From Betaproteobacteria bacterium (lineage in GTDB: Bacteria; Pseudomonadota; Gammaproteobacteria; Burkholderiales; SG8-41), in assembly GCA_025353085.1 (NCBI GenBank), contig JANXRI010000451.1, positions 1 to 36,048 of the forward strand: 36,048 nt of DNA. Reading direction: 5' to 3'. This document shows, piece after piece, positions 14,835 to 26,616 of the stretch; position 1 is the stretch's first letter; each line of letters starts with the position of its first letter. The position numbers and the translations under genes were made by a program. The notes beneath the pieces are model-generated. The model was not told where the DNA came from. It did no database searches and was given only the letters and a program-made list of their open reading frames with translations.

Positions 14835-16958
14835 TCAAAACTGCAATTGGGCGTTGACGCCGACGAGGTAATTGCGCGTCGGCGACGGCTCGTAGAATCG
14901 CAGGTTGCTGTCGGCAACAATCACCGAGCCCACGTATTGGCGGTTGGTAATGTTATCGATGCGCGCGAATTCGGTAACGCGCCATTTGCCGCTGCGTTGC
15001 TCAAAGCCGGCGCGCATATTGCCAATCGTGTAAGGATCGGCAAACGCGCTGTTCTGGTCGTTCACATAAACTTTGCCCGACGAACGCACTTCGGCCGCGG
15101 CGTGAAAACCGCTCGTCGCATGCCGCCACACCACTTCGCCGTAAATTGTGTAAAGCGGCACGCCCGGCAACCGGTTGCCGGAAGCCACGCTGACGGCCGG
15201 CGTGCCCGACGTGAACGGCTGGGAGAATCCGGCGTTGAGCCAGGTATAGGCGAGCGCCGCTTCGAAGCCGGCGCCGAGATAACTTTCCACCGACAGTTCG
15301 ATGCCTTTGCGATCGGTCTTCGGCGCGTTTTTGTAAGTGGTGCGGCCGCCGACTGATGTATCGACCACGATTTCGTTATCGGTGTTGACTTGGAACAGCG
15401 TGAGATTGACGCGCGCGGCTTTGCCGAGCTTGCCCTTGACGCCGATTTCCCTGCTCAAACTGGTCGACGGTTGCAGCGCAAAGTTGAGGCCTGTGCCGGT
15501 ATTACGGTACGCGAGTTCAATCAATGTCGGCGTCTCAAAGCCGCGCCCGATGTTGGCATATACATTCCACGACTGCGCCAGATTGAAAAGCACGCCCGCG
15601 ACCGGTGTTGTCTTCGCATAACTGACCGCGCCGCTATCGTTGCCGTTGCTGACAAAATAATCGTTGGAATTGAAGCGCACATTGCTGTAACGCAGGCCCG
15701 CCGTCGTGCTCCAGCGTGGCGCAAACTTCCATTCGAATTGCCCGTATAAGTCGCTATTCGTGACGGTGTTTTTTTCGTCGCGTTTGAGCGTGCCCTGAAT
15801 GCCGTTATTGTTGAGATAGCCTTTGCGATGCTGGGCCATGCGGTCGTAGTCGACGCCGGCGCTGAAATTAAGCGGGCGGTCGCCGTCGCTGAGGGTATGC
15901 GTCCAGCGCACGCCGAGACCTTCGTAGCCAAAATCCTGATCGACCACGGCGCCCGACGACGTGGCGACGAGTTGGGCCGCGAGCGGAATCGCCTGGAATT
16001 GCGTGACCTGGCGGTCGCCGAGATAAGTGCGCGCCTGGATCTTGTCGGCGCTGCCGAGATTCATGTCATAAACGAGACCGACCTGGTTTTGCCGCACGCT
16101 TTTGCGCGTGTTGAACAGCCTCGCGCTCGGATCGGCTTGGCGCGGGTTCGCGATGACCTGCGCACGGGTCAAGCCGAGCGGATCCTGGGTTTCAGGTTGA
16201 TCGACCGCGTTCACGACCATCGTTAACTGGCCACCGGGCGCCGGCATTTTGAATTTGGCATTCGACAGGTCGCGCGTCACCGTGCTGTGGTCGCGATAAC
16301 CGTCGCTGTGAAAGCGCGATGTGTCGAACATGTAATTGAAACGGCCATCCTGCCCGCCGAACTGCAGGCCGCCTTTGTACGTGCCATAGCTGCCGCCGAA
16401 AGTGGAGCCGCTGAGCGTCGGCTCGGGCGGACCATCGGCCGTGAACAGTTGAATTACGCCGCCCGATGCATTGCCATAAAGACTCGAGAAGGGTCCGCGC
16501 ATGACTTCGATGCGCTCGGCCGAATTCAAATCGAAGCTGGACGCCTGGGCGGAGCCGTCGGGGAGGGTTGCGGGGATGCCATCGGCAATCAGCCGGATGC
16601 CGCGTACGCCGAACGCCGAGCGCGCGCCGAAACCGCGCGATGAAATCTGCAGGTCCTGCGCATAATTCTGGCGATTGAGTATCGAAATACCCGGCACGCG
16701 ATTGAGCGATTCAGAAAGGTTGACCTGCAAGCGGTCTTCGCGGATGACGCTCTTGTCTACGCTGTCGATCGCGACCGGCAGATCGAAACTGTCGCGCGCG
16801 CTGCGCGTGGCGCTCGTGACGACTTCGGGCAACAGGACCGGCGCTGCTGCCGGTTTGGACTCCTGAGCGAACGCGTCAGGCGCCAGGGCCGCGAGCGCAT
16901 AACCGGACAGAACGTATAACGACGCGGTTAGGTTCATGTGAAGAAGCACCGTTCGCAA
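14835..16958 (-). CDS. TonB-dependent receptor, YncD/PqqU-like (candidate PQQ importer)
   Basis: TonB-box-like EVVTSATR, plug RQNYAQDLQISSRGFGARSAFGVRGIRLIADGIPATLPDG resembling E. coli YncD as I recall it, C-terminal Phe. Confidence 0.8.
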   Translation of the reverse strand: MRTVLLHMNLTASLYVLSGYALAALAPDAFAQESKPAAAPVLLPEVVTSATRSARDSFDLPVAIDSVDKSVIREDRLQVNLSESLNRVPGISILNRQNYAQDLQISSRGFGARSAFGVRGIRLIADGIPATLPDGSAQASSFDLNSAERIEVMRGPFSSLYGNASGGVIQLFTADGPPEPTLSGSTFGGSYGTYKGGLQFGGQDGRFNYMFDTSRFHSDGYRDHSTVTRDLSNAKFKMPAPGGQLTMVVNAVDQPETQDPLGLTRAQVIANPRQADPSARLFNTRKSVRQNQVGLVYDMNLGSADKIQARTYLGDRQVTQFQAIPLAAQLVATSSGAVVDQDFGYEGLGVRWTHTLSDGDRPLNFSAGVDYDRMAQHRKGYLNNNGIQGTLKRDEKNTVTNSDLYGQFEWKFAPRWSTTAGLRYSNVRFNSNDYFVSNGNDSGAVSYAKTTPVAGVLFNLAQSWNVYANIGRGFETPTLIELAYRNTGTGLNFALQPSTSLSREIGVKGKLGKAARVNLTLFQVNTDNEIVVDTSVGGRTTYKNAPKTDRKGIELSVESYLGAGFEAALAYTWLNAGFSQPFTSGTPAVSVASGNRLPGVPLYTIYGEVVWRHATSGFHAAAEVRSSGKVYVNDQNSAFADPYTIGNMRAGFEQRSGKWRVTEFARIDNITNRQYVGSVIVADSNLRFYEPSPTRNYLVGVNAQLQF

Positions 16959-16963
16959 GCGAC

Positions 16964-17557
16964 TTAGCGCATACCGGAAAAATAATTGGCGAGCATATCG
17001 ATATCGGCTTCCGACAGCGGCTGGGCGGCCGAGGTCATCTGGCCATCCATGTCGAAGCGCGTCGATGCCTTGAACCCGCGCAACTGCGTTTTGAGGTAAT
17101 CACGCTGTTGGCCGGCGAGTCGTGGAATATGTTGTTGGCCGAGCAGCGCCGGTCCGTGACACTGCACGCAATTGTATTGTTGAGAGAGGCGGGCGCCGGC
17201 CTGCGTAGCAGTGGCATCTACACCCGTAGTCGGCGGCGTCAATTTTTGCGTCGTGAAATAAGCGGCGAGATTATTCAAATCGGTATTCGTGAGATTGGCG
17301 GCGAATGGCGACATTTGCGCGTCCTTGCGTTTGCCTTCCCGAAACATCAAAAGCTGTGTGGCAATGAATTGAGCGGGTTGTCCGGCCAGCGACGGTACGG
17401 TCGGATTGCTGGATATACCTTCGGCGCCGTGACATGCAACGCAGACCTGGGCTTTTTGCATGCCGGCGGCCGCATCAGCGGCGAGCGCCGGATAAGATAA
17501 CGCGGTGGCGAGTAATCCCGCCACCGCGTGTGCAGTAACTATCTTAGTCAGGCTCAC
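16964..17557 (-). CDS. Periplasmic diheme c4-type cytochrome
   Basis: Signal peptide, CVACH and CVQCH, each followed by P.LAGQ; overlaps the dehydrogenase stop. Confidence 0.9.
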   Translation of the reverse strand: MSLTKIVTAHAVAGLLATALSYPALAADAAAGMQKAQVCVACHGAEGISSNPTVPSLAGQPAQFIATQLLMFREGKRKDAQMSPFAANLTNTDLNNLAAYFTTQKLTPPTTGVDATATQAGARLSQQYNCVQCHGPALLGQQHIPRLAGQQRDYLKTQLRGFKASTRFDMDGQMTSAAQPLSEADIDMLANYFSGMR

Positions 17558-18813
17558 TTCTTGTAACTGATCCGGTAAATGATTCCGTTGTAATCGTCGG
17601 ACACGAGCATCGCGCCGTCACGCATCATCATTACGTCGACCGGGCGGCCCCACATTGGCGGATCGCCTTTCTCGTCGGTCAGGAAGCCGTCGAGGAACGG
17701 TTTCAACGTGGCTTTGCCCTGGCCGTCTACCACCACGCGCATCACGTTATAGCCGTGCTTGGTGCTGCGGTTCCATGAACCGTGCATCGCCACGAAAATG
17801 TTGCCCTGGTATTCGGCCGGAAACATCTTGCCGGTGTAAAAACGCATGCCGAGCGGAGCGATGTGCGGACCGAGTTTTAACGCTGGCGCATCAAACTCCG
17901 CGCAGGCGCGGCCTTTGCCGAATTCAGGATCGGGCAGGTCGCCCTGATGGCAGAACGGATAGCCGTAATTCATATTCTTGTGCGAGACGCGGTGCAGCGT
18001 ATCGTTCGGCAGATCGTCGCTGATCCAGTCGCGCGCGTGGTTGGTGAACCACAGTTCCTTGGTCTTGGGGTTCCAGTCGAAGCCGACTGAATTGCGCACG
18101 CCATGGGCGACGGTCTCGAGTGTGCCCGTCTTGGGATCGACGCGGTGGATGGCCGCCTGCATGTAATTCGGCATCACGATGTTGCCGGGCGCGCCGATGT
18201 TGAAATACAGCTTGCCATCGGGGCCGAGGGCTAAAAATTTCCAAAAGTGGCCGGGCTGCGAAGACGGATCCAGGTTGTCGATAACGATTTTGGCCTCCGG
18301 CGGATTGTCGAGGCGGTCTTCGATCCCATCGTAACGCGTGATGCGGTGGCGCTCGGCGACGAACAGCGTGCCTTTGCTGAATGCGACGCCGTTTGGCGCG
18401 TTAAGGCCGGCCAGCAATTTTTTGACTTCGCGCTTGCCGCCGCGGTCGATGATTGCGTACACGTCGGAAAGATTGCGGTTGCCGGCGAACACGGTACCTT
18501 TGTCGCCGAGTGCGAGCGAGCGCGCCTCGGGGATGCCCTCTGCCCATACTTCGATTTTGAAGCCCGGCGGCAGCTTCAATTTGCTGAGCGGCAACTCGCT
18601 TGACGGGCGTCCCGTGAACAGCGGCGCGAACGGATGCAGGGTTGACGTCCCTTGCTCAGTTGAGCGGCCTTGCTGCCACGATGGCGGTGCGGCCGGCGCG
18701 GCGGTCGGCGGCGTCTGCGCCCATGCGCTCGTAAGAAGCAGTGAAGCGGCAATCACGCCCGCCCCACGCTGGAATCCGCGGTGCAGTTGGTTCAACCCGA
18801 TGGAAACTTGCAT
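17554..18813 (-). CDS. PQQ-dependent sugar/sorbosone dehydrogenase family beta-propeller (start 18813)
   Basis: AGGAGA RBS, signal peptide, KLPPGFKIEVWA, GPDGKLY, GVRNSVGFDW, YGYPFCH, HGSWNRS, GRPVDV, LVSDD. Confidence 0.88.
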   Translation of the reverse strand: MQVSIGLNQLHRGFQRGAGVIAASLLLTSAWAQTPPTAAPAAPPSWQQGRSTEQGTSTLHPFAPLFTGRPSSELPLSKLKLPPGFKIEVWAEGIPEARSLALGDKGTVFAGNRNLSDVYAIIDRGGKREVKKLLAGLNAPNGVAFSKGTLFVAERHRITRYDGIEDRLDNPPEAKIVIDNLDPSSQPGHFWKFLALGPDGKLYFNIGAPGNIVMPNYMQAAIHRVDPKTGTLETVAHGVRNSVGFDWNPKTKELWFTNHARDWISDDLPNDTLHRVSHKNMNYGYPFCHQGDLPDPEFGKGRACAEFDAPALKLGPHIAPLGMRFYTGKMFPAEYQGNIFVAMHGSWNRSTKHGYNVMRVVVDGQGKATLKPFLDGFLTDEKGDPPMWGRPVDVMMMRDGAMLVSDDYNGIIYRISYKK

Positions 18814-18972
18814 ATTTTCTCCTATGATAAAAACGAGACCTGTTGGCGTGGTTCGACGTCCGGTTTCCACGTGAGGCAGTATCTTCTGCAGTATCAGAAT
18901 AAGTGTAGCACTCCGAGCGGACCGGGATGCCGTAACTGCTAAAAACAGAAACATGGATAACGGAATTCGCCT

Positions 18973-19614
18973 CTATATCACCCTGAAGTAACCGTGTTTT
19001 GCAAAGGTGCAGCCGAATTTGCTTTCGCGCGCAGTATCGGCCTGCAGGCGTCCCGGATTCGCGGCCAGGTACTCGATGATCGCCTCCATCGGTCCGGGTC
19101 CAAAATCGGGCCTTACCGGATGTCCGTTGACGATGGTGTCTTCGACGACGAGATAGTCGCCCGGTTTGAGCCACGGTACCCATACCGTGAGTTCCTTGAA
19201 CACATGCGACGCGGTGTGATCGGAATCGAGCATTAGCAGTAAACCGTGCCGCCGTTTCGGCGGGATGATCGCGGCAACCTGTTCGACCATATCGTCCGCC
19301 GCGCTGTCGCCGAGCAAAAACCGGATGTGTGAATGGGTCGTGGCGACCGGATCCAGCGCGTCATGCGTTACGTCGATCGTGACGACGCTGCCCTCGCGAT
19401 CGCCTGCCGCGAGCAGATCCGCAAAAAACAGGGCCGAGCCGCCGTGGCGGGTGCCCGTTTCGAGCACCCAGTGCAGGTTATTTTCAAAAATGATTTCCTG
19501 GTAGTTCCACATATCGAGTGGCAGCTTCAGCGTCCGAACGCCGCGATAGTGCAGATCCTTCCAGACATGGGTGCCGTAAAACCACTCGAGATACTGCTGT
19601 CCTTCAGGAGTCAC
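18973..19614 (-). CDS. CmcI (cephalosporin hydroxylase)/rhamnosyl O-methyltransferase family protein
   Basis: K.PLDMWNYQEII, ETGTRHGGSALFFA, LDSDHTASHV..EL, GDYLVVEDT. Confidence 0.88.
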   Translation of the reverse strand: MTPEGQQYLEWFYGTHVWKDLHYRGVRTLKLPLDMWNYQEIIFENNLHWVLETGTRHGGSALFFADLLAAGDREGSVVTIDVTHDALDPVATTHSHIRFLLGDSAADDMVEQVAAIIPPKRRHGLLLMLDSDHTASHVFKELTVWVPWLKPGDYLVVEDTIVNGHPVRPDFGPGPMEAIIEYLAANPGRLQADTARESKFGCTFAKHGYFRVI

Positions 19615-19624
19615 CGGGTGCCCT

Positions 19625-20152
19625 TTAACGCTCAGGTTTTTTTTCGCCGACGATCCGCATATCCCGCGGCTCCCGCAGCTTGAACTGGGCAGGTTCCTGC
19701 CGCAGATTTACAAGTCCCGCTTCATGCATGACTTCCCCGAGGCTCGCCGGCGAATAACCCCAGCGATGGTTCATCAACGGGTCCTTCCATGCTGGGTCGC
19801 CATAAAATACCCACATTGAACGTTGCCCTTCCTGACCCGGCCCAGTGGCGACATCGGGGTTGCGCAGCAGCTCCTGACAAGCTGAAATCAAGTTCGGGCA
19901 TTCGAGAATCATCATGCCGCCCGGCTTCATCACGCGCAGCCATTCCTTGAGAACGTCGACAACCTCCCAGCGCCAGAAATGCTCGACGACATGGACTGAG
20001 AGTATTTCGTCGATCGTGTCATCGTCGAACGGCGTAAGCCGATGCAAATCGCACAGCACATCGGGCTTATGGCCGCGCCGGCTGGCGGCGACATCGACAT
20101 TAACGTAGCCGGCAAGAATTTTGTCGCCGCAGCCGAGATTCAGCTTTCTCAA
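19625..20152 (-). CDS. Class I SAM-dependent methyltransferase (type 11-like)
   Basis: KLNLGCG...GYVNVD, HVVEHF, EWLRVMKPGG...ECPNL. Confidence 0.85.
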   Translation of the reverse strand: MRKLNLGCGDKILAGYVNVDVAASRRGHKPDVLCDLHRLTPFDDDTIDEILSVHVVEHFWRWEVVDVLKEWLRVMKPGGMMILECPNLISACQELLRNPDVATGPGQEGQRSMWVFYGDPAWKDPLMNHRWGYSPASLGEVMHEAGLVNLRQEPAQFKLREPRDMRIVGEKKPER

Positions 20153-20310
20153 GAACGTTTCCCCATTCCAGCGCTGTTAGCTCACAACAATAGCGGTATA
20201 TGTTACTTGATCGCGCCGGTATAGAATTCGCGTGCCGGTGAAAACAAGACATCTTTACAATCGCGCGCCGGGTCCGTGGATAATTTTCAGGCCGAACGCC
20301 GGATAGGTTT

Positions 20311-21321
20311 ATGAAGGCAGTCTGGATCGTGCCACAGCACGCGCTCAAAACCAATGCCGGCGGCACGGGATCGGACCTCGCGAGCATTCGCTATCGCGCA
20401 ATTATGCCGATGCAGGGCCTGATCGCGCGTGGGCACGACGCGTCGGTGATCGGACTTGATCGAAATTGCGCCGATAACGTGCGCAAGCACATTGCGGACG
20501 CCGACCACCTCGTGTTCATAAAGAATTACGCTGATCCCGTCTGCAGCGAAACAGTGCTCGAAGAGCAACGCGTTAACGGTATAAAGACATGGTTTGATCT
20601 TACCGATGACCGTTTCGAAGGCGCCGCCAGCGAGCATCTTCACCGCATGGTTTTGCTCGCCGACAATGTCATCACGGTATCGTCCGCGCTGCGGCAGATT
20701 ATTTTGCAACATACCGGCAAAGATTCCGTTATCGTCGGTGATCCCTTTGAGGGCCCGCGCGGGACGCCGACGTGGTCGCCGGATGGCGCGCGCCTTAAGA
20801 CGTTATGGTTCGGCTATGGATGGAACATTCCGGGCTTAATGAAGGCGTTGCCTTCATTATTGGAAGCCGCCCGGCAATTTCCGATGGATCTGCGCATCGT
20901 GACCGCGGGTGTCGAGGGCATCGAGCGCTATTGCGAGAAGTTCAATCGCAAAAATGGCGGCGCCTTGTCGCTTGTGTACGTGCCATGGTCCAGCGCCGAA
21001 ACATGGAACACGCTGGCCGCCACCGAGGTTGTGCTTATTCCAGCCTTGCAGGACGAGCCATAGACACTTGCAAAAAGTCCTAACCGGATCATTGAGGCAC
21101 TTTGGTCCGGCCGTTTCGTCATCGCTCATCCGATTCCTTCGTACCTGAAATTCAAGGACTGGGCGTGAATCGGCGCCGACCTGGCGGAAGGCGTCGCATG
21201 GACGATGAACAACCAGGATTCGATCGTTGCGCGTATCGGCGGCGCGCAGACTCATATTGAGTCGGCCTATTCCCCCGCCACGATCGCCTTGCGGCGGGAG
21301 CAGGTTTTCGAGAACGCTTGA
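20311..21321 (+). pseudogene. Glycosyltransferase-like gene with two in-frame stops
   Basis: ASIRYRA N-terminus, DLTDD, WFG motif. The frame continues past TAG (21061) as TLAKSPNRIIEALWSGRFVIAHPIPSY (GT-B-type motif), and past TGA (21166) to a natural end at 21321. Confidence 0.75.
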
Positions 21322-21901
21322 CCCCATACATTTTCTGACGCCACTGACTGACCGGTCCCGGTTGGGCGACGTTTAAAACGCGCCCTGTTTAAAAGTCAGA
21401 CTTCGCCTGCAGTGTGGTTTCCCGTCCATATTTCCCCGCCGGGTTCTTATTTGAGTTATGCCTTAGATATTTATCTGGACGCCCGACCCTCGGATTTTGG
21501 TCATCTATTCGTCATAATGATGGACCGGCACCACTTAAGTTCATGCCGAACAGCACAGGTAACGCGATGTATTCCGCGGGATATGCATCCAGCATCCGAA
21601 CGATCCGCAGTGCCAGCGACCTTAATGTGTTGTAGGCCACTCCAGGACGAATGGCGTGCGTACTCCGGTTTATATATGCCAATGCGTTTGGCATTCTTCG
21701 AGGAAAAATTACAAAAATCCATTCGTTCGATTCTGGATCACGCAATCTCAGAACACACACACACGTTCACCAAACCGAATCGATCGATCACCGCCACCGG
21801 GTACAACAAATCAAATTGGAATAGTGGTGGCTTCCAATCGATTTGGAAGAGGAGTCCATACACACGAACATTCGTCAGTGATTTCAAGACTCTCGGCGGC
21901 G

Positions 21902-22519
21902 TCACTTTGATTGCAGGAACTCGGCGACCGCTTTCATATCGGTAAGCTTCAATTCCGTGATCAACCCATGCATCACCGACGACTTGCGTAAATTGGTCTG
22001 GATAACCTGTAACTGTCTGACGACGTACGCCGCATGCTGTCCGGCCAGGCGTGGAAATATTGTGTTGCCCTCGGCATTGGCGCCATGGCAACTGACACAG
22101 GCCGTGATCTTTCTTGAGTCGTCGCCATTTTCGAATAAGTGCTTGCCCTGTGCGATGAGGGCGGGATCGCCGGGCTTGCCCGTCGCCGGCGTCTGCGATG
22201 AATAGTAGCCGGCCAATCCATCGACTAAAGCCTCATCCAATGTCGCGGCAATTCCCCACATATAGTCGTGGGCCTCGGGGTCGCTGCGGCTTTTGTCCTT
22301 GAGAGCCCTGAGTTGTGCGGATAGATACATCTTCTGCTGCCCGGCGAGTTTGGGAAATGTCGGTGATATGCTATTGCCCGCCGGACCGTGGCACGAAGAA
22401 CACAAATTGACCGCGACTTTGGCGGCGGCATTGTTGATCGCTTCTGATGATTCGGCCGCTAGTGCGGCACTCGAACTTAACGCCAGCGCCAATCCAACTG
22501 TTGTTGCAATACGCTTCAT
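21902..22519 (-). CDS. Periplasmic diheme c4-type cytochrome (Cyc1-like; start 22519)
   Basis: Signal peptide MKRIATTVGLALALSSSAALA, CSSCH and CVSCH each followed by FP.LAGQ, Met ligand candidates YMWG and VMHG; directly downstream of the cytochrome-porin. Confidence 0.88.
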   Translation of the reverse strand: MKRIATTVGLALALSSSAALAAESSEAINNAAAKVAVNLCSSCHGPAGNSISPTFPKLAGQQKMYLSAQLRALKDKSRSDPEAHDYMWGIAATLDEALVDGLAGYYSSQTPATGKPGDPALIAQGKHLFENGDDSRKITACVSCHGANAEGNTIFPRLAGQHAAYVVRQLQVIQTNLRKSSVMHGLITELKLTDMKAVAEFLQSK

Positions 22520-22593
22520 CGCCACGCCCCCATTCTTTTTAGCGGTTGGTTGCACTGAAGCGATGCTGGTTTTATAAACCGTGATTGCGCGCA

Positions 22594-23997
22594 TCAAAAT
22601 GCCACCCACACATTTGCAAACAGCAGATTATTGTCGCGTGCACTTCGCGTGCCGACGCCGTCGTAGGCGGTGCCCCCACCGTTGAACTTCGTGAATCCCG
22701 TGTACTGGAGCATTAGTCGCACATTCTGAATCGGCAGATAATTCAGTTCCACGATGTAGCCGGTGCTGTTGGGACTCCCGTTCGCGCTGCCGGTGACAGC
22801 CGCAGGAGCGTAAAGCCCCGCATCGGCGCTTCCCGTCGTGTTGAAATACGCCACGGTTGCGCCATACTTGCGCTGATAATAGTACGTGCCCTTGACCTTG
22901 AATGTTTGCAGGTTGTTCGTGGCATTGATAGGAACCGGGCCGGCACCAATTCCGCCCGCCGGGAAGCTCGCTTTGTAATCCTGCTTTTCCCAGATATAAG
23001 CGGCCTGCGCGGTGTATGTGTGTACCCCCGACACCGACTGAAATTGGGCATCCACCGCGTAATCCGTGTACTGGTCGGTCGGCGTACTGGGCATTGAATT
23101 ATCGGGATACCGGTTCACGCGCAGGCCGTAGGTGCCTACCATGACCGAGTTCGGCCCCCATTCATGGTTCCATGCGAGACGCCAGTACGGGTTATAGCCT
23201 CGGAGGCGCGCGACGGCGCCAGGAGTCGCGGTGTCCTGTCCAGCGCGGAAGAACGAGAATGCTCCGTCGGCCGTACGATAGAACGATAGCTCCGCGTAAA
23301 TGGATTTTTTCAAAAAAATGTAGCCCCCCATTCCGGCGACCTGCTGGGCGAGCGTGTTGTCTACCTGGGTCTTCGCGGCAGGGTTTACAGCGAACGGCGA
23401 GGCGGTGTATGGGAAACCAAATGCCGACGTGCTGTTCCAAACGTCCTGCACCGTTGGATTGTTGTGCACGGTCAACCCGTAGATTAGTTCGGGCTCCTGT
23501 GAACCGGAGCCGGCATATTTGCCAACAAGACGTATGTCGCTATTGTCGAGCCCCGAGTGTCCTTTGAGGGAGGTGATCCCGTTCGCATCCGTGGAAGAAG
23601 AAACATTGTTGTAGGTGTATTGAACAAATCCGCCGAGATAATCCGTCGCTTTTCCCGCGACGAACAGACTTGCCGCGCTGAATACCGCATCGTTATTTCG
23701 GTTGTTTATGACTGATGCGCCTGAGCCAGTGCCGTCGTCGTTATTGCGGATGGAGTTATACGAAGCCTGCGCCATTACCGCGACCGGAAATAGCTGGCGA
23801 TCGCCTATCGTATATCCGGTTAGTTTGAAATAGCGGCCATACGCGGTAAGTTCCGGGAAACTAATGTGGCATGCGACACATGCCTGGCCGGTCTGTCGAG
23901 CATAGCTGGGGACGGCATGTGCATGTGGCAAAGCTACAAGTAGTAGCACGCCCGAGCACAACGCTTTCAATGGCAGAAATGGCTCTATCGATCGCAT
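22594..23997 (-). CDS. cyc2: Cyc2-type fused monoheme cytochrome-porin (outer-membrane electron conduit, putative Fe(II) oxidase)
   Basis: AGGAGG RBS; signal peptide ending AHA; AVPSYARQTGQACVACHISFPELTAYGRYFKLTGYT is the Cyc2 N-terminal signature; rest is Gly/Tyr/Asn-rich amphipathic beta-strands ending in Phe. Confidence 0.85.
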   Translation of the reverse strand: MRSIEPFLPLKALCSGVLLLVALPHAHAVPSYARQTGQACVACHISFPELTAYGRYFKLTGYTIGDRQLFPVAVMAQASYNSIRNNDDGTGSGASVINNRNNDAVFSAASLFVAGKATDYLGGFVQYTYNNVSSSTDANGITSLKGHSGLDNSDIRLVGKYAGSGSQEPELIYGLTVHNNPTVQDVWNSTSAFGFPYTASPFAVNPAAKTQVDNTLAQQVAGMGGYIFLKKSIYAELSFYRTADGAFSFFRAGQDTATPGAVARLRGYNPYWRLAWNHEWGPNSVMVGTYGLRVNRYPDNSMPSTPTDQYTDYAVDAQFQSVSGVHTYTAQAAYIWEKQDYKASFPAGGIGAGPVPINATNNLQTFKVKGTYYYQRKYGATVAYFNTTGSADAGLYAPAAVTGSANGSPNSTGYIVELNYLPIQNVRLMLQYTGFTKFNGGGTAYDGVGTRSARDNNLLFANVWVAF

Positions 23998-24148
23998 GAC
24001 TAAACCTCCTTGTTATTCCACCATATCTCGCTGTGGGCCACCGTACTACATTCCCTTAAAGACGATGTCACAGACTCCCTATGCGTTAGCGGACAGAGCG
24101 TGGCTTAAATTAAGTTTGACAATTGTGCAGTCCGCTCGACGAGTACGT

Positions 24149-24162
24149 TTGATCTAGATCAA
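24149..24162 (-). promoter_or_regulatory. FNR/ANR/DNR-family binding site upstream of cyc2
   Basis: TTGATCTAGATCAA is a perfect TTGAT-N4-ATCAA. Minus-strand -10-like CACAAT at 24127-24122 puts the site centre near -41 (class II geometry). Confidence 0.8.
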
Positions 24163-24404
24163 TTCAACTCGAATTAGACCGCTCACAAGGGCGGGGCTTG
24201 ATGAAGTAAAAACCGAGGGTTATTCAGAGTAATCGCGCCGCCGGGAGTCTTGGGATCACTGACCTATGAGCCAGTAGATTCACCCGAACTCGATATACCG
24301 CCGATGCGGCACCTTTGCTCTGCTGATTTGCATTCCCTCGATCCGCCGTTAACATATCGATTTCTTGGTGTATGTGAAACGGAGGCAGAATCATTGCGGC
24401 TTCC

Positions 24405-25088
24405 AAGCTCACGCCAGCCCGGAAGGACCGGATAGTCCGTGCGCTTCAGTCGCGCGGCCACGTGGTCGGCTTTCTCGGCGACGGCATTAACGACTCGCCA
24501 GCTTTGCGCACGGCGGACATCGGTATTTCCGTAGATACCGCGGTCGACATTGCGAAGGAGTCGGCCGACATAATTTTGCTTGAAAAAAGCCTGATGGTGC
24601 TCGAGGAGGGCGTGCTTGAAGGCCGCAGAACGTTCGGCAACATTTCAAAATATATCAGGATGGCGGCGAGTTCGAATTTCGGCAACATGTTCAGCATCTT
24701 GGGCGCGAGCGCATTTCTGCCTTTCCTCCCGATGCTTCCGCTACAGATTCTGCTTCAGAACTTGCTCTATGACATTTCGCAGATCGCCATTCCCTTCGAT
24801 GACGTAGACAAGGAATACACCGAGAAGCCGCGCAAATGGGTGATCGGCAGTCTGGCTCGTTTCATGATCTGTATCGGCCCGGTCAGTTCCATCTTTGATT
24901 ATGTGACGTTCGCGATGATGTGGTTTGTGTTCTCGGCGCAAGTCCCCACCTCACAATCCCTCTTTCAATCGGGCTGGTTTATCGAAGGGCTACTGTCGCA
25001 GACGCTAATCGTTTATATCATCCGCACGGCAAAAATTCCGTTTATTCAGAGCCGGGCCGCCCTGCCTTTATTGTTGACGACGGCTGCC
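24405..25088 (+). pseudogene. mgtA: Internal fragment of Mg2+-translocating P-type ATPase (MgtA/MgtB)
   Basis: [69 protein letters not shown]; lacks the N-terminal two thirds and the final TM helices. Confidence 0.88.
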
Positions 25089-26239
25089 ACGGTAAGTTCG
25101 GAGTTCTCCAGTCGACCAATAGGGAACCATACCTTGTAACGTTGACTAAAAACGCGTCACTTCCAATGGTTCTGCGTAAGCGCATGGCTTTGTTGGCGCG
25201 GGGTTCGACTCTTTCAGAGAGCGATGGGATGGGTTTTAAGGCTGTATTAACGGAACGGGAGGATTGTAAAGATCGTTATAGCGATAGCGATGTATTAACA
25301 ATATCGAATGACTACGATTACTTAAGCGAGGGTGACATCATCCGGTTAGACCCCGTTACAGGTTCAATGCGGTCTCTTTTCAGAAGGAACTCACTTCACA
25401 ATACGATCCTGCTAACGGAGCAATGCAATCACTATTGTTTGATGTGTTCACAGCCTCCGAAGCGAGCAGACGATTCGTGGCTATTAAAGGAAGCGTTTGA
25501 GCTAGTAGATTTAATACCTCGAGACACTCAAGCAATCGGATTTAGCGGCGGGGAGCCGACATTGTACGGCGACAAACTGATAGAGCTATTGGCCCATGTT
25601 AAAAGAAACTTACCAAACACCGCTGTCGATATTCTTTCCAACGGGCGCACTTTCAAGGACTTTGAGTTTGCCAAGAAATATGCCGCCGTCTGTCATCCTG
25701 ACATTCTGGTTGGAATACCGATTTACTCTGATGACCCGGTTCGCCACGATTATGTCGTTCAAAGCAAGGGGGCATTTGACGAAACAGTTCGAGGTATTCT
25801 TAATCTAAAAAGAGTTCAACAGAAGGTGGAGATCAGAGTCGTTATTCATAAGCAAACGATAGATCGACTTGTTAAGACATGCGAATTCATCGCTCGAAAC
25901 CTATTGTTTGTCGATCACGTCGCCTTAATGGGGTTGGAAATCACCGGGTTCACTAGAGCAAATCTGGATGACCTTTGGATTGATCCATACGAATACAAGG
26001 ACGTACTCAGTGAAGCAGTTTCATTGCTAAACAGCTACGGAATGACATCGTCCGTGTACAACCACCAGCTATGCACTGTAAATTCTGACGTGTTGGGAAA
26101 TTACAGAAAATCAATTAGTGATTGGAAGAATGAATATCTTGAGGAATGTGCGTCGTGCACAAAATTCGTCGAATGTGGCGGGTTGTTTTCCTTGGCAAAA
26201 ATGTACAAACATAGCCAATACATAAGAGCATTTACCTAG
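25088..26239 (+). CDS. hxsC: His-Xaa-Ser system radical SAM maturase HxsC, native start apparently lost (internal ATGs at 25166 and 25184)
   Basis: [17 protein letters not shown] (CxxxCxxC), [51 protein letters not shown]....CGG; visibly AT-rich. Confidence 0.8.
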
Positions 26240-26542
26240 ATGTCCTGCTGAATGTTAGTAGCAGTTTGACGCCGGGTGGTCATTTACACAATGCCGATGT
26301 GTTGCAATCCGAATTGAAGAAGACCGCAATAGCTGTGTCGTCAACGACTCAATTCAGTAAAAATCAGCACGCTTCCCCAAGCACACCATCCAAATTTACT
26401 GAGGGCAGACTAGTAGTTCCCCGTGCAGGGTCATCAGACACTTCAGTAAAAGTCACCGCTCTCCACCCATATACATCTTTTACTGAACCCAAACAGTCTG
26501 TTGGAGGCAGGTCCGGTAGTAGCGTAAAATCGCCGCCAGTCC

Positions 26543-26616
26543 GCGGGTGTAGTTCAATGGCAGAACGGCAGCTTCCCAAGCTGCATACGAGGGTTCGATT
26601 CCCTTCACCCGCTCCA
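26543..26616 (+). tRNA. tRNA-Gly (anticodon CCC)
   Basis: GCGGGTG/CACCCGC acceptor stem, anticodon arm GCAGC-TTCCCAA-GCTGC, GGTTCGATTCC T-arm, encoded CCA; TAAAAT -10 and GC-rich discriminator upstream. Confidence 0.97.

Follow-up and report, generated by a model that had tools for sequence, protein, structure and literature searches.

The DNA analysed here, referred to as the window, is a stretch of 36,048 nucleotides that constitutes an entire contig (C184; JANXRI010000451.1) of the 3.3-Mb, 476-contig metagenome-assembled genome (MAG; GCA_025353085.1; 89.5% complete, 2.36% contamination) of an uncultured soil/sediment betaproteobacterium. Its reverse strand carries two neighbouring genes, of which the first encodes a fusion of a monoheme cytochrome c with an outer-membrane porin (P0001) and the second a periplasmic diheme cytochrome c4 (P0002). 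A reading of the letters alone (hereafter the original prediction) had proposed that these two genes constitute a stand-alone, horizontally acquired Cyc2-c4 module for Fe(II) oxidation or electron uptake. Judged from sequence and predicted fold, the membership of P0001 in the Cyc2 family is secure.

According to Keffer et al. (2021; PMC8406198), Cyc2 proteins are characterized by (i) a signal peptide, (ii) one CXXCH motif with the motif AXPXFAR[Q/K][T/Y] just upstream, (iii) a PXL motif four residues past CXXCH, (iv) a 16-stranded porin, and (v) a length of at least 365 residues. With a single replacement in the head motif, P0001 (467 residues) agrees with all of these sequence and model features as given in that source, which bears out its original assignment to Cyc2. 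Its signal peptide, recognized by inspection (MRSIEPFLPLKALCSGVLLLVALPHAHA, ending before VPSY), exhibits a basic n-region, the h-region LCSGVLLLVAL and AHA ahead of the motif, and the structural model places a helix at residues 7–22 over this region. The head following AHA, VPSYARQTGQACVACHISFPELTAYGRYFKLTGY, contains close to the N-terminus the sole CXXCH of the open reading frame (ORF), C40-V-A-C-H44, preceded by A28-V-P-S-Y-A-R-Q-T36, which fits the published motif at all fixed positions except for the conservative exchange of Phe for Tyr. The same exchange is present in 3 of the 24 rows examined of a 48-sequence family alignment, and a literal PXFAR regular expression would overlook P0001 because of it. 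The PXL motif (H44-I-S-F-P48-E-L50) comprises a near-invariant P48 and an L50 that is invariant among the 48 sequences.

The AlphaFold2 model of P0001, built on the same 48-sequence alignment, is of high confidence (mean pLDDT 91.7, pTM 0.88) and consists of short N-terminal helices followed by 16 strands, the barrel resembling the 16-stranded general porins of the OmpF/OmpC type (Foldseek, E ~1e-9; 290 matches at E ≤ 1e-3). An intact, secreted protein with a barrel ending in Phe had been predicted: coordinates, length, head motif and the final residue of the C-terminus (...NVWVAF) are all as claimed, and the expected barrel emerged with a porin fold. None of the Pfam and NCBIfam models matches P0001, nor does any solved structure match it by sequence. 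The family is very large: 2934 of 8000 scored candidates match at E ≤ 1e-3, and phmmer reaches 2594 clusters (50% identity) at E ≤ 1e-3, 360 of them also at E ≤ 1e-30, which is far beyond chance.

The longest ORF over the partner gene extends from 21902 to 22609 on the reverse strand, while the ATG at 22519 leaves exactly 74 nt past the Cyc2 stop; the signal peptide of P0002, likewise identified by inspection, is MKRIATTVGLALALSSSAALA, ending before AE. P0002 comprises two class-I cytochrome c domains (PF00034, Cytochrom_C, matched twice), and C40/C43/H44/M87 as well as C141/C144/H145/M183 are invariant in 39 aligned c4 partners. It aligns over its full length with four solved c4 structures, the best match being 1H1O (E 1.5e-35, 126 bits), ahead of the Pseudomonas stutzeri c4 (104.5 bits). 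The structure 1H1O is that of the cytochrome c4 of the Acidithiobacillus ferrooxidans iron respiratory chain (PMC5982212), and this protein (Cyc1/CYC41) and P0002 share the diheme composition, the two class-I domains and the His/Met ligands. P0002 is thus a true c4, located at the distance from cyc2 that had been foreseen, and both genes of the pair possess signal peptides, as judged by eye, and are free of lesions. Identity as a PdsA-type shuttle was considered for P0002 and rejected (57.6 bits, against a cut-off of 330). Promoter and terminator scans yielded counts not above those of shuffled sequences; a terminator-like hairpin (22625-22600) overlaps the end of cyc2.

Table 1. Position and nature of the features at the cyc2-c4 locus (window coordinates).
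Feature	Position	Strand	Description
cyc2-like gene	22594..23997	-	Intact ORF, ATG start, no internal stop; 467-aa monoheme cytochrome c / 16-strand outer-membrane porin fusion (P0001)
cyc2-c4 spacer	22520..22593	-	74 nt, from ORF coordinates
cyc1-like gene	21902..22519	-	205-aa periplasmic diheme cytochrome c4 (P0002); ATG at 22519 (MKRIATT...)
Shine-Dalgarno (SD) sequence AAGGAGG	24005..24011	-	Strong; 7 nt before cyc2 ATG; read from sequence
FNR/Anr-type palindrome TTGATCTAGATCAA	24149..24162		Perfect; centred 158 nt upstream of cyc2 ATG
Segment without counterpart in nearest same-genus genome (G006)	20410..26515		6.1 kb; tblastn/blastn against syntenic stretches
orf250	20311..21063	+	Intact 250-aa ORF, no Pfam/NCBIfam match; gene of the variable locus, not in the cassette
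mgtA remnant (Mg-translocating P-type ATPase)	24462..25139	+	Last quarter only; TIGR01524 positions 605-812 of 867
Orphan hxsC (HxsC radical-SAM maturase)	25322..26239	+	TIGR03977, 397 bits, positions 2-290 of 292
tRNA-Gly(CCC)	26543..26616	+	Right border of variable patch; ARAGORN and Rfam

To place P0001 within the family, we used as the A. ferrooxidans-type reference a Cyc2 picked by the synteny of a rus-type operon, not the A. ferrooxidans protein itself. We found it by searching 400 genomes from the class of the window organism for rusticyanin; one of them exceeded the cut-off and four matched at E ≤ 1e-10. The genome with the best rusticyanin match (G337) contains no Cyc2 match with profile A1; another of the four (G408) encodes a Cyc2 homologue (425 bits with profile A1; L118:9963-11348), followed on the same strand by a membrane-anchored, putatively cupredoxin-like ORF without family match, coxB, coxA, ctaA, ctaB and a rusticyanin-like gene that scores 136 bits against a cut-off of 146.7. 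The rus-type gene order has also been reported in Acidihalobacter (Li et al. 2023; PMC10654088). P0001 matches the G408 protein over residues 10–465 (33% identity, E 4e-69), whereas proteins with a CxxCHFQ head from genomes of the same order (L010, L011) match it only at residues ~6–68 (E 1e-8 to 5.5e-10); HFQ after CXXCH is what we take to mark Cluster 1 Cyc2. This favours an affinity of P0001 with the Acidithiobacillus type over the HFQ type, in line with the original prediction. In a maximum-likelihood tree of 89 family members, P0001 is located in a fully supported clade with four metagenome proteins (76–86% identity), and the adjoining clade (SH-aLRT 83, not starred) contains Rhizobacter, Roseateles koreensis (Sphaerotilaceae) and one MAG; Cluster 2 cyc2 has been described for the Leptothrix-Sphaerotilus group (PMC11412304). 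The full-length match to a rus-type Cyc2, the head-only match to HFQ types and the Sphaerotilaceae sister clade together support placing P0001 in the Acidithiobacillus-like branch (Cluster 2). A plasmid match labelled 'A. ferrooxidans' (H11) scores the same as an Acidiphilium cryptum plasmid and was discarded as not being rus-operon Cyc2.

Comparison with known systems reveals both shared and distinct features. Like rus-operon Cyc2 of the A. ferrooxidans type, P0001 exhibits a signal peptide, an N-terminal CXXCH, an AxPxFARQ-type head, PxL, a 16-strand barrel and a similar length; it differs by having Tyr for Phe, an FNR-type box upstream of its gene and a host without sign of acidophily or autotrophy. 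Moreover, the rus operon has the order cyc2-cyc1-cup-coxBACD-rus, whereas the pair described here lacks linked rusticyanin, cup/acoP and coxBACD genes; none of the rusticyanin, cupredoxin and aa3 oxidase genes was found in the window, so that the pair is not part of a rus operon. With Cyc2PV-1 and the Gallionellaceae Cyc2 of neutrophilic iron oxidisers (Cluster 1), P0001 has the architecture and the head motif in common, but only the head can be aligned. The closest parallel in gene content is provided by the stand-alone Cluster 2 cyc2-cyc1 pairs of Sulfuriferula, the Leptothrix-Sphaerotilus group and Thiomonas (PMC12285272, PMC11412304), which comprise the same two genes. Sulfuriferula isolates with Cluster 2 cyc2 and cyc1 are reported to have grown on Fe(II) (PMC12285272), whereas oxidation of Fe(II) by the window organism is putative. 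Li et al. (PMC10654088) describe stand-alone cyc2/cyc1 as well as similarity networks in which AfCyc2 and AfCyc1 link to lineages such as Burkholderiales and Rhodanobacteraceae. Given these stand-alone pairs and the isolates growing on Fe(II), the cyc2-c4 pair represents an already known kind.

The pair was then followed through related loci, which were collected by a pattern scan with one genome per species. The scan yielded at least 599 stretches with at least 592 confirmed relatives, of which we studied the best 80 (42–64% identical). The Cyc2 ORF passed a motif filter in 73 of these 80 loci (L024, L053, L058, L073, L078, L084 and L085 were dropped), and 72 of the 73 were evaluable in that they extend at least 650 nt downstream of cyc2; a diheme partner was counted if its ORF starts between -150 and +400 nt from the cyc2 stop. 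A diheme ORF follows cyc2 in 58 of the 72 loci, a tetraheme ORF in one, and neither in 13; beside the close homologues from the genome search, a diheme ORF is present in six out of six cases. No other neighbour is widespread, the largest further neighbour cluster occurring in 11 of the 80 loci. The identities of Cyc2 and c4 to the window proteins co-vary (Spearman 0.77 for 58 pairs, kin not being independent). These comparisons show that the cyc2-c4 pair is a conserved unit of inheritance, and they agree with the proposal of a minimal two-gene conduit, since it is exactly cyc2 and c4 that are kept.

The FNR/Anr consensus is TTGAT-N4-ATCAA. Within the window, only the palindrome upstream of cyc2 (Table 1) fits it with at most one mismatch; the genome contains 11 perfect boxes in total, this one included. 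When the 360 nt upstream of cyc2 were surveyed in the related loci, an FNR-type box with at most one mismatch was found in 27 of 72, and a perfect one in 14. In 200 dinucleotide-preserving shuffles, boxes with at most one mismatch averaged 1.06 (maximum 5) and perfect boxes 0.06 (maximum 1), while 360-nt downstream controls yielded none in 71. A one-mismatch FNR-type box is also located ~86 nt upstream of ccoN in the window genome. The conserved box thus suggests that the operon would be switched on at low oxygen. Our literature search found no paper connecting cyc2 with FNR; the nearest precedent is the control by FixK of the pioABC iron-oxidation operon in Rhodopseudomonas palustris TIE-1 (PMC3050613). 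There a regulator of the FNR family ties an outer-membrane iron-oxidation system to low oxygen, as proposed here for the window pair, although the pio conduit is a different one, composed of decaheme PioA and the porin PioB, and control of the window pair is predicted from the conserved box only.

As had been predicted, neither rusticyanin nor a terminal oxidase is encoded next to the pair; candidate electron sinks are located elsewhere in the genome. It encodes both a cbb3 oxidase (CcoN, 750 bits) and an aa3 oxidase (CtaD, 648 bits against a cut-off of 670.75, in a partial frame), the genes for subunit I of both being on contigs other than the window, as well as two high-potential iron-sulfur protein (HiPIP) genes. 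A rusticyanin match was found nowhere in the assembly, nor did any NarG match exceed the cut-off. Rusticyanin is the carrier from which c4 of A. ferrooxidans obtains its electrons, as far as the sources consulted describe it. As no rusticyanin was found in the window genome, its c4 would have to take electrons from Cyc2 either directly or via an unlinked carrier.

On this basis we propose a conduit, encoded by a genuine Cyc2-c4 module and induced at low oxygen, that would carry electrons from Fe(II) via the Cyc2 haem and c4 to an oxidase, a proposal to which we give an even chance of being right. After export, P0001 would be placed in the outer membrane by BAM, forming a 16-strand barrel with the N-terminal monoheme domain at or in it. 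Its haem would accept electrons one at a time from a reductant dissolved outside the cell, most probably Fe(II), and would then reduce the periplasmic diheme c4 encoded 74 nt downstream. From c4, electrons may pass to a cytochrome c oxidase encoded elsewhere, with cbb3 being the likeliest and aa3 a possible acceptor, and the FNR-type box would switch the operon on at low oxygen, where Fe(II) persists and cbb3 operates. In support of Fe(II) as the donor, all three biochemically tested members of the Cyc2 family oxidise Fe(II), as reported in PMC8406198.

No RuBisCO was found in the 89.5% complete genome. The benefit of the conduit would therefore be supplementary energy or removal of Fe(II) in a heterotroph, rather than autotrophic growth. 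The latter benefit leads to a second view, namely that extracellular Fe(II) is oxidised at low oxygen in order to limit Fenton chemistry in the periplasm, without meaningful gain of energy. The lack of a RuBisCO match, the heterotrophic hosts and the patchy distribution within the genus (a cyc2 match in 5 of 24 genomes), which is typical of accessory stress traits, are consistent with such protection, and He et al. (2017; PMC5566968) discuss detoxification of Fe(II) as one alternative for heterotrophic oxidisers. Electrons passing through c4 to a proton-pumping oxidase would, however, conserve energy regardless of which benefit is selected, so that protection overlaps with the conduit proposed above, and the sequence holds nothing that would separate a protective from an energetic role. 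We consider a purely protective role unlikely.

The distribution of the pair bears on its function. Among the best 80 loci, carriers belong to Casimicrobiaceae, Sphaerotilaceae (Roseateles), Methylophilaceae, Neisseriaceae, Burkholderiaceae (Paraburkholderia, Burkholderia, Trinickia, Ralstonia), Rhodanobacteraceae (Dyella, Rhodanobacter) and others; to our knowledge, none of these named groups is a recognised lithotrophic iron oxidiser. Homologues are also present on 15 plasmid or megaplasmid records, including a conjugative plasmid of Acidiphilium cryptum JF-5 on which a transposase gene is adjacent. RefSeq names the plasmid homologues 'cytochrome C' or 'hypothetical protein', just as the original prediction had anticipated that automated pipelines would label the protein merely as cytochrome c. 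On plasmid pSBC1_3 of Caballeronia sp. SBC1 (734 kb; L109 2909-5926), a HiPIP gene is located upstream of the cyc2-c4 pair, an arrangement that recalls the HiPIP-containing Bradyrhizobium cluster cited in PMC5566968. Two further records deserve comment with regard to their assignment: in L068, titled Candidatus Levyibacteriota, Cyc2 groups tightly with a Casimicrobiaceae copy (SH-aLRT 100) and is probably mis-binned rather than an outer-membrane protein of the candidate phyla radiation (CPR), and the record L069 (Acidobacteriota) also holds a Cyc2 gene.

Acidiphilium cryptum JF-5 and A. multivorum are acidophilic heterotrophs known for Fe(III) reduction, and their plasmids encode homologues with 35.5–35.7% identity to P0001. 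One may thus consider that the same hardware does another job, serving as a low-oxygen redox port of the outer membrane that passes respiratory electrons outward to Fe(III), humics or further extracellular acceptors, or that takes them up from donors besides Fe(II), such as reduced humics, Mn or sulfur species. That carriers are mostly heterotrophs would fit this, an FNR box suits anaerobic electron disposal as well as microaerobic uptake, and Keffer et al. allow for 'additional functions' (PMC8406198). Yet the three tested family members mentioned above all oxidise Fe(II), the partner of P0001 is nearest to the c4 of an iron-oxidising chain, and in none of the 80 loci does the pair have a linked quinol-dehydrogenase-type cytochrome. 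In addition, c4 proteins are high-potential donors to oxidases. We therefore regard such an alternative port as rather unlikely.

Several observations weigh against the proposed conduit from Fe(II) to an oxidase: (i) Keffer et al. (PMC8406198) describe the function of much of Clusters 2 and 3 as unverified, (ii) no heterotrophic member of the subfamily is known to oxidise Fe(II), and the named relatives are overwhelmingly organisms not known for iron oxidation, mostly heterotrophs, (iii) homology does not determine which way the electrons flow, as the Acidiphilium homologues illustrate, (iv) the strict published motif has Phe where P0001 has Tyr, (v) the cassette sits among decaying genes, (vi) no fnr gene was found in the 89.5% complete assembly, whose three Crp-family proteins are devoid of the FNR-type Cys cluster, and (vii) no RNA run containing 21902-23997 was found, which provides no evidence either way on expression. 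With respect to the missing fnr gene, FNR scores over the cut-off in 18 of 28 other genomes of the genus, including G006, so that an assembly gap is the likeliest reason.

Turning to the surroundings of the pair, the conserved core of the window contains on one side spoT, rph, a hemW-like gene, thiG, trmB, genes for a TonB receptor and for a diheme cytochrome with a GSDH-like protein, and two methyltransferase genes, and on the other side tRNA-Gly, asmA, mutY, rapZ, hprK, ptsN and rpoN. In the nearest genome of the same genus (G006; AsmA 91% identical), the methyltransferase genes and the tRNA/asmA region are separated by 218 bp, in comparison with 6.1 kb in the window. The inner part (21326-26477) is also absent from G019 and G007, which keep orf250 at the same locus with 75–80% amino acid identity; homology with the relatives resumes at 26478-26543. 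The resulting unique 5.15 kb comprise the c4 gene, cyc2, the last quarter of mgtA and the orphan hxsC, and the G+C content of the patch is 0.46–0.56, against 0.58–0.61 outside. The orphan hxsC, within 24920-26239, falls in the kilobase where the G+C content of the window is lowest (0.461 at 25001-26000), with no HxsA, HxsB or HxsD gene beside it and no second hxsC copy in the genome; the stretch 21064-21901 contains no recognisable gene. The original prediction had described the neighbours as broken on both sides. This holds upstream of the pair, where the mgtA remnant and the orphan hxsC are located, and fails on the other side, where orf250 is intact and conserved.

Roseateles koreensis hw8 (L036 921-5997) provides a view of what the imported block may have looked like. 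There an intact P-type ATPase gene of 920 codons is divergent from cyc2-c4 at a distance of 206 bp, and the window remnant shares 75% identity with this ATPase over the corresponding part; in total, four related loci (L036, L009, L027, L030) have a Mg-type P-type ATPase gene next to cyc2-c4. The import hence probably comprised at least c4-cyc2-mgtA, with a subsequent loss of ~600 codons (1.8 kb) of mgtA. We envisage that the pair arrived within such a larger block at a variable locus beside tRNA-Gly, where the passengers would have decayed and the pair stayed intact. Another kind of P-type ATPase, which carries a hemerythrin domain at its C-terminus, is found in 7 of the 80 loci, and the P-type ATPase neighbours make a link of the cassette to metal homeostasis possible.

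The accessory, horizontally acquired nature of the pair, as originally proposed, is consistent with the 6.1 kb absent from G006, the inner part absent from two further genomes, the lower G+C content and the mgtA synteny with Roseateles. Comparison across relatives, suggested as a check, likewise revealed that the pair is absent from the three readable syntenic loci, with cyc2 matched in just five of the 24 other genus genomes searched. The copies in G004, G003 and G022 reside on contigs other than the asmA contig and are just 61–65% identical, and the G002 copy sits in a separate fully supported clade. Against purely horizontal acquisition, an approximately unbiased (AU) test does not reject a single clade uniting the copies of the window, G004, G003 and G022 (p 0.339, for a group named after the tree had been seen); import is therefore established by synteny and not by the tree. 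A blastn comparison with plasmids matched no more of the patch than mgtA- and hxsC-like pieces, with 11–14% cover. We also considered an integrase-mediated island at the 3' end of the tRNA and dismissed it: the patch is situated on the 5' side of the tRNA, and none of its scanned ORFs matches an integrase or transposase family, direct repeats not having been searched for. Taken as a whole, there is clear evidence for a recent insertion with decaying passenger genes in which the pair remained intact.

Such a setting raises the question of whether the pair itself is a silent passenger, intact merely because its import is recent, unexpressed or useless in its host and bound to decay. The truncated mgtA and the orphan hxsC flanking the pair, its absence from the three relatives with a readable syntenic locus and the failure to find fnr in the assembly would all be in accord with this. 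However, while the adjacent mgtA has lost 1.8 kb, both ORFs, the SD sequence, the FNR box and all invariant residues have stayed undamaged; the genus usually has FNR, and in a run from a second study (X5) the cyc2 region recurs at ~97% identity with different flanks. We thus consider a silent passenger improbable. The contigs of run X5 are 95–99% alike over the methyltransferase genes and the cyc2 region, diverge at 20395 and 25088 and provide no cover over 20505-22009; they may derive from a related strain that holds the cassette with different flanks.

Finally, the drop in G+C, the 476 contigs, the 2.36% contamination and a second partial AsmA copy in the assembly could be taken to indicate that the patch is a chimeric join of foreign DNA within a MAG contig. 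Independent Logan contigs, from three runs of one study, bridge 19000-20627, 20123-22759, 21149-23076, 23437-24159 and 24458-26132; among these, 20123-22759 spans the methyltransferase gene, orf250, c4 and cyc2, and others extend across the mgtA remnant and hxsC. A chimeric join is therefore unlikely at the left junction and in the cassette. All bridging runs stem from a single study, and the source sample may be among them; no Logan contig bridges the tRNA junction (26543), where the depth exceeds 2000. An assembly artefact appears very improbable to us. The second AsmA copy (G000:C172:1229-2110) is 76% identical to that of the window and points to the presence in the bin of another strain or of a contaminating relative.

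A further cluster in the conserved core (14835-18954, reverse strand) encodes a TonB-dependent receptor, a diheme cytochrome c of 197 residues and a 466-aa protein resembling GSDH and PVC-type haem-binding domains. The cytochrome is PdsA-like, with 83 bits far below the cut-off. The cluster is found in the same order in G006, G019, G003 and G020 and partially in G007, and may represent a periplasmic dehydrogenase with its own cytochrome.

For the uncultured betaproteobacterium itself, P0001 is an ordinary new member of a very large known family, with a putative role in iron oxidation. What is added here is modest and consists of the recent insertion with its decaying passengers, the synteny link to Roseateles and the quantitative support for a conserved FNR-type box. 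Cyc2 serves as a metagenome marker for microbial iron oxidation, while most homologues are found in heterotrophs, where the function is putative. It is then of practical use that the unit of inheritance is the cyc2-c4 pair and that this pair moves between genomes and onto plasmids. The FNR-type box, being frequent in this branch, predicts low oxygen as the condition for testing the pair, and cultured, non-pathogenic carriers such as Roseateles koreensis and Dyella halodurans make its function directly testable. Tentatively, and with more doubt than belief, we may view the Cluster-2-type Cyc2-c4 pair as a mobile, self-contained and FNR-switched respiratory add-on that connects Fe(II) to cbb3. 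If this is true, a large share of common soil and sediment heterotrophs of the Burkholderiaceae, Sphaerotilaceae, Rhodanobacteraceae, Methylophilaceae and Casimicrobiaceae would become facultative microaerobic iron oxidisers when oxygen falls, and lithoheterotrophic oxidation of Fe(II) in soil would be much more widespread than one would expect from the organisms currently recognised as iron oxidisers.

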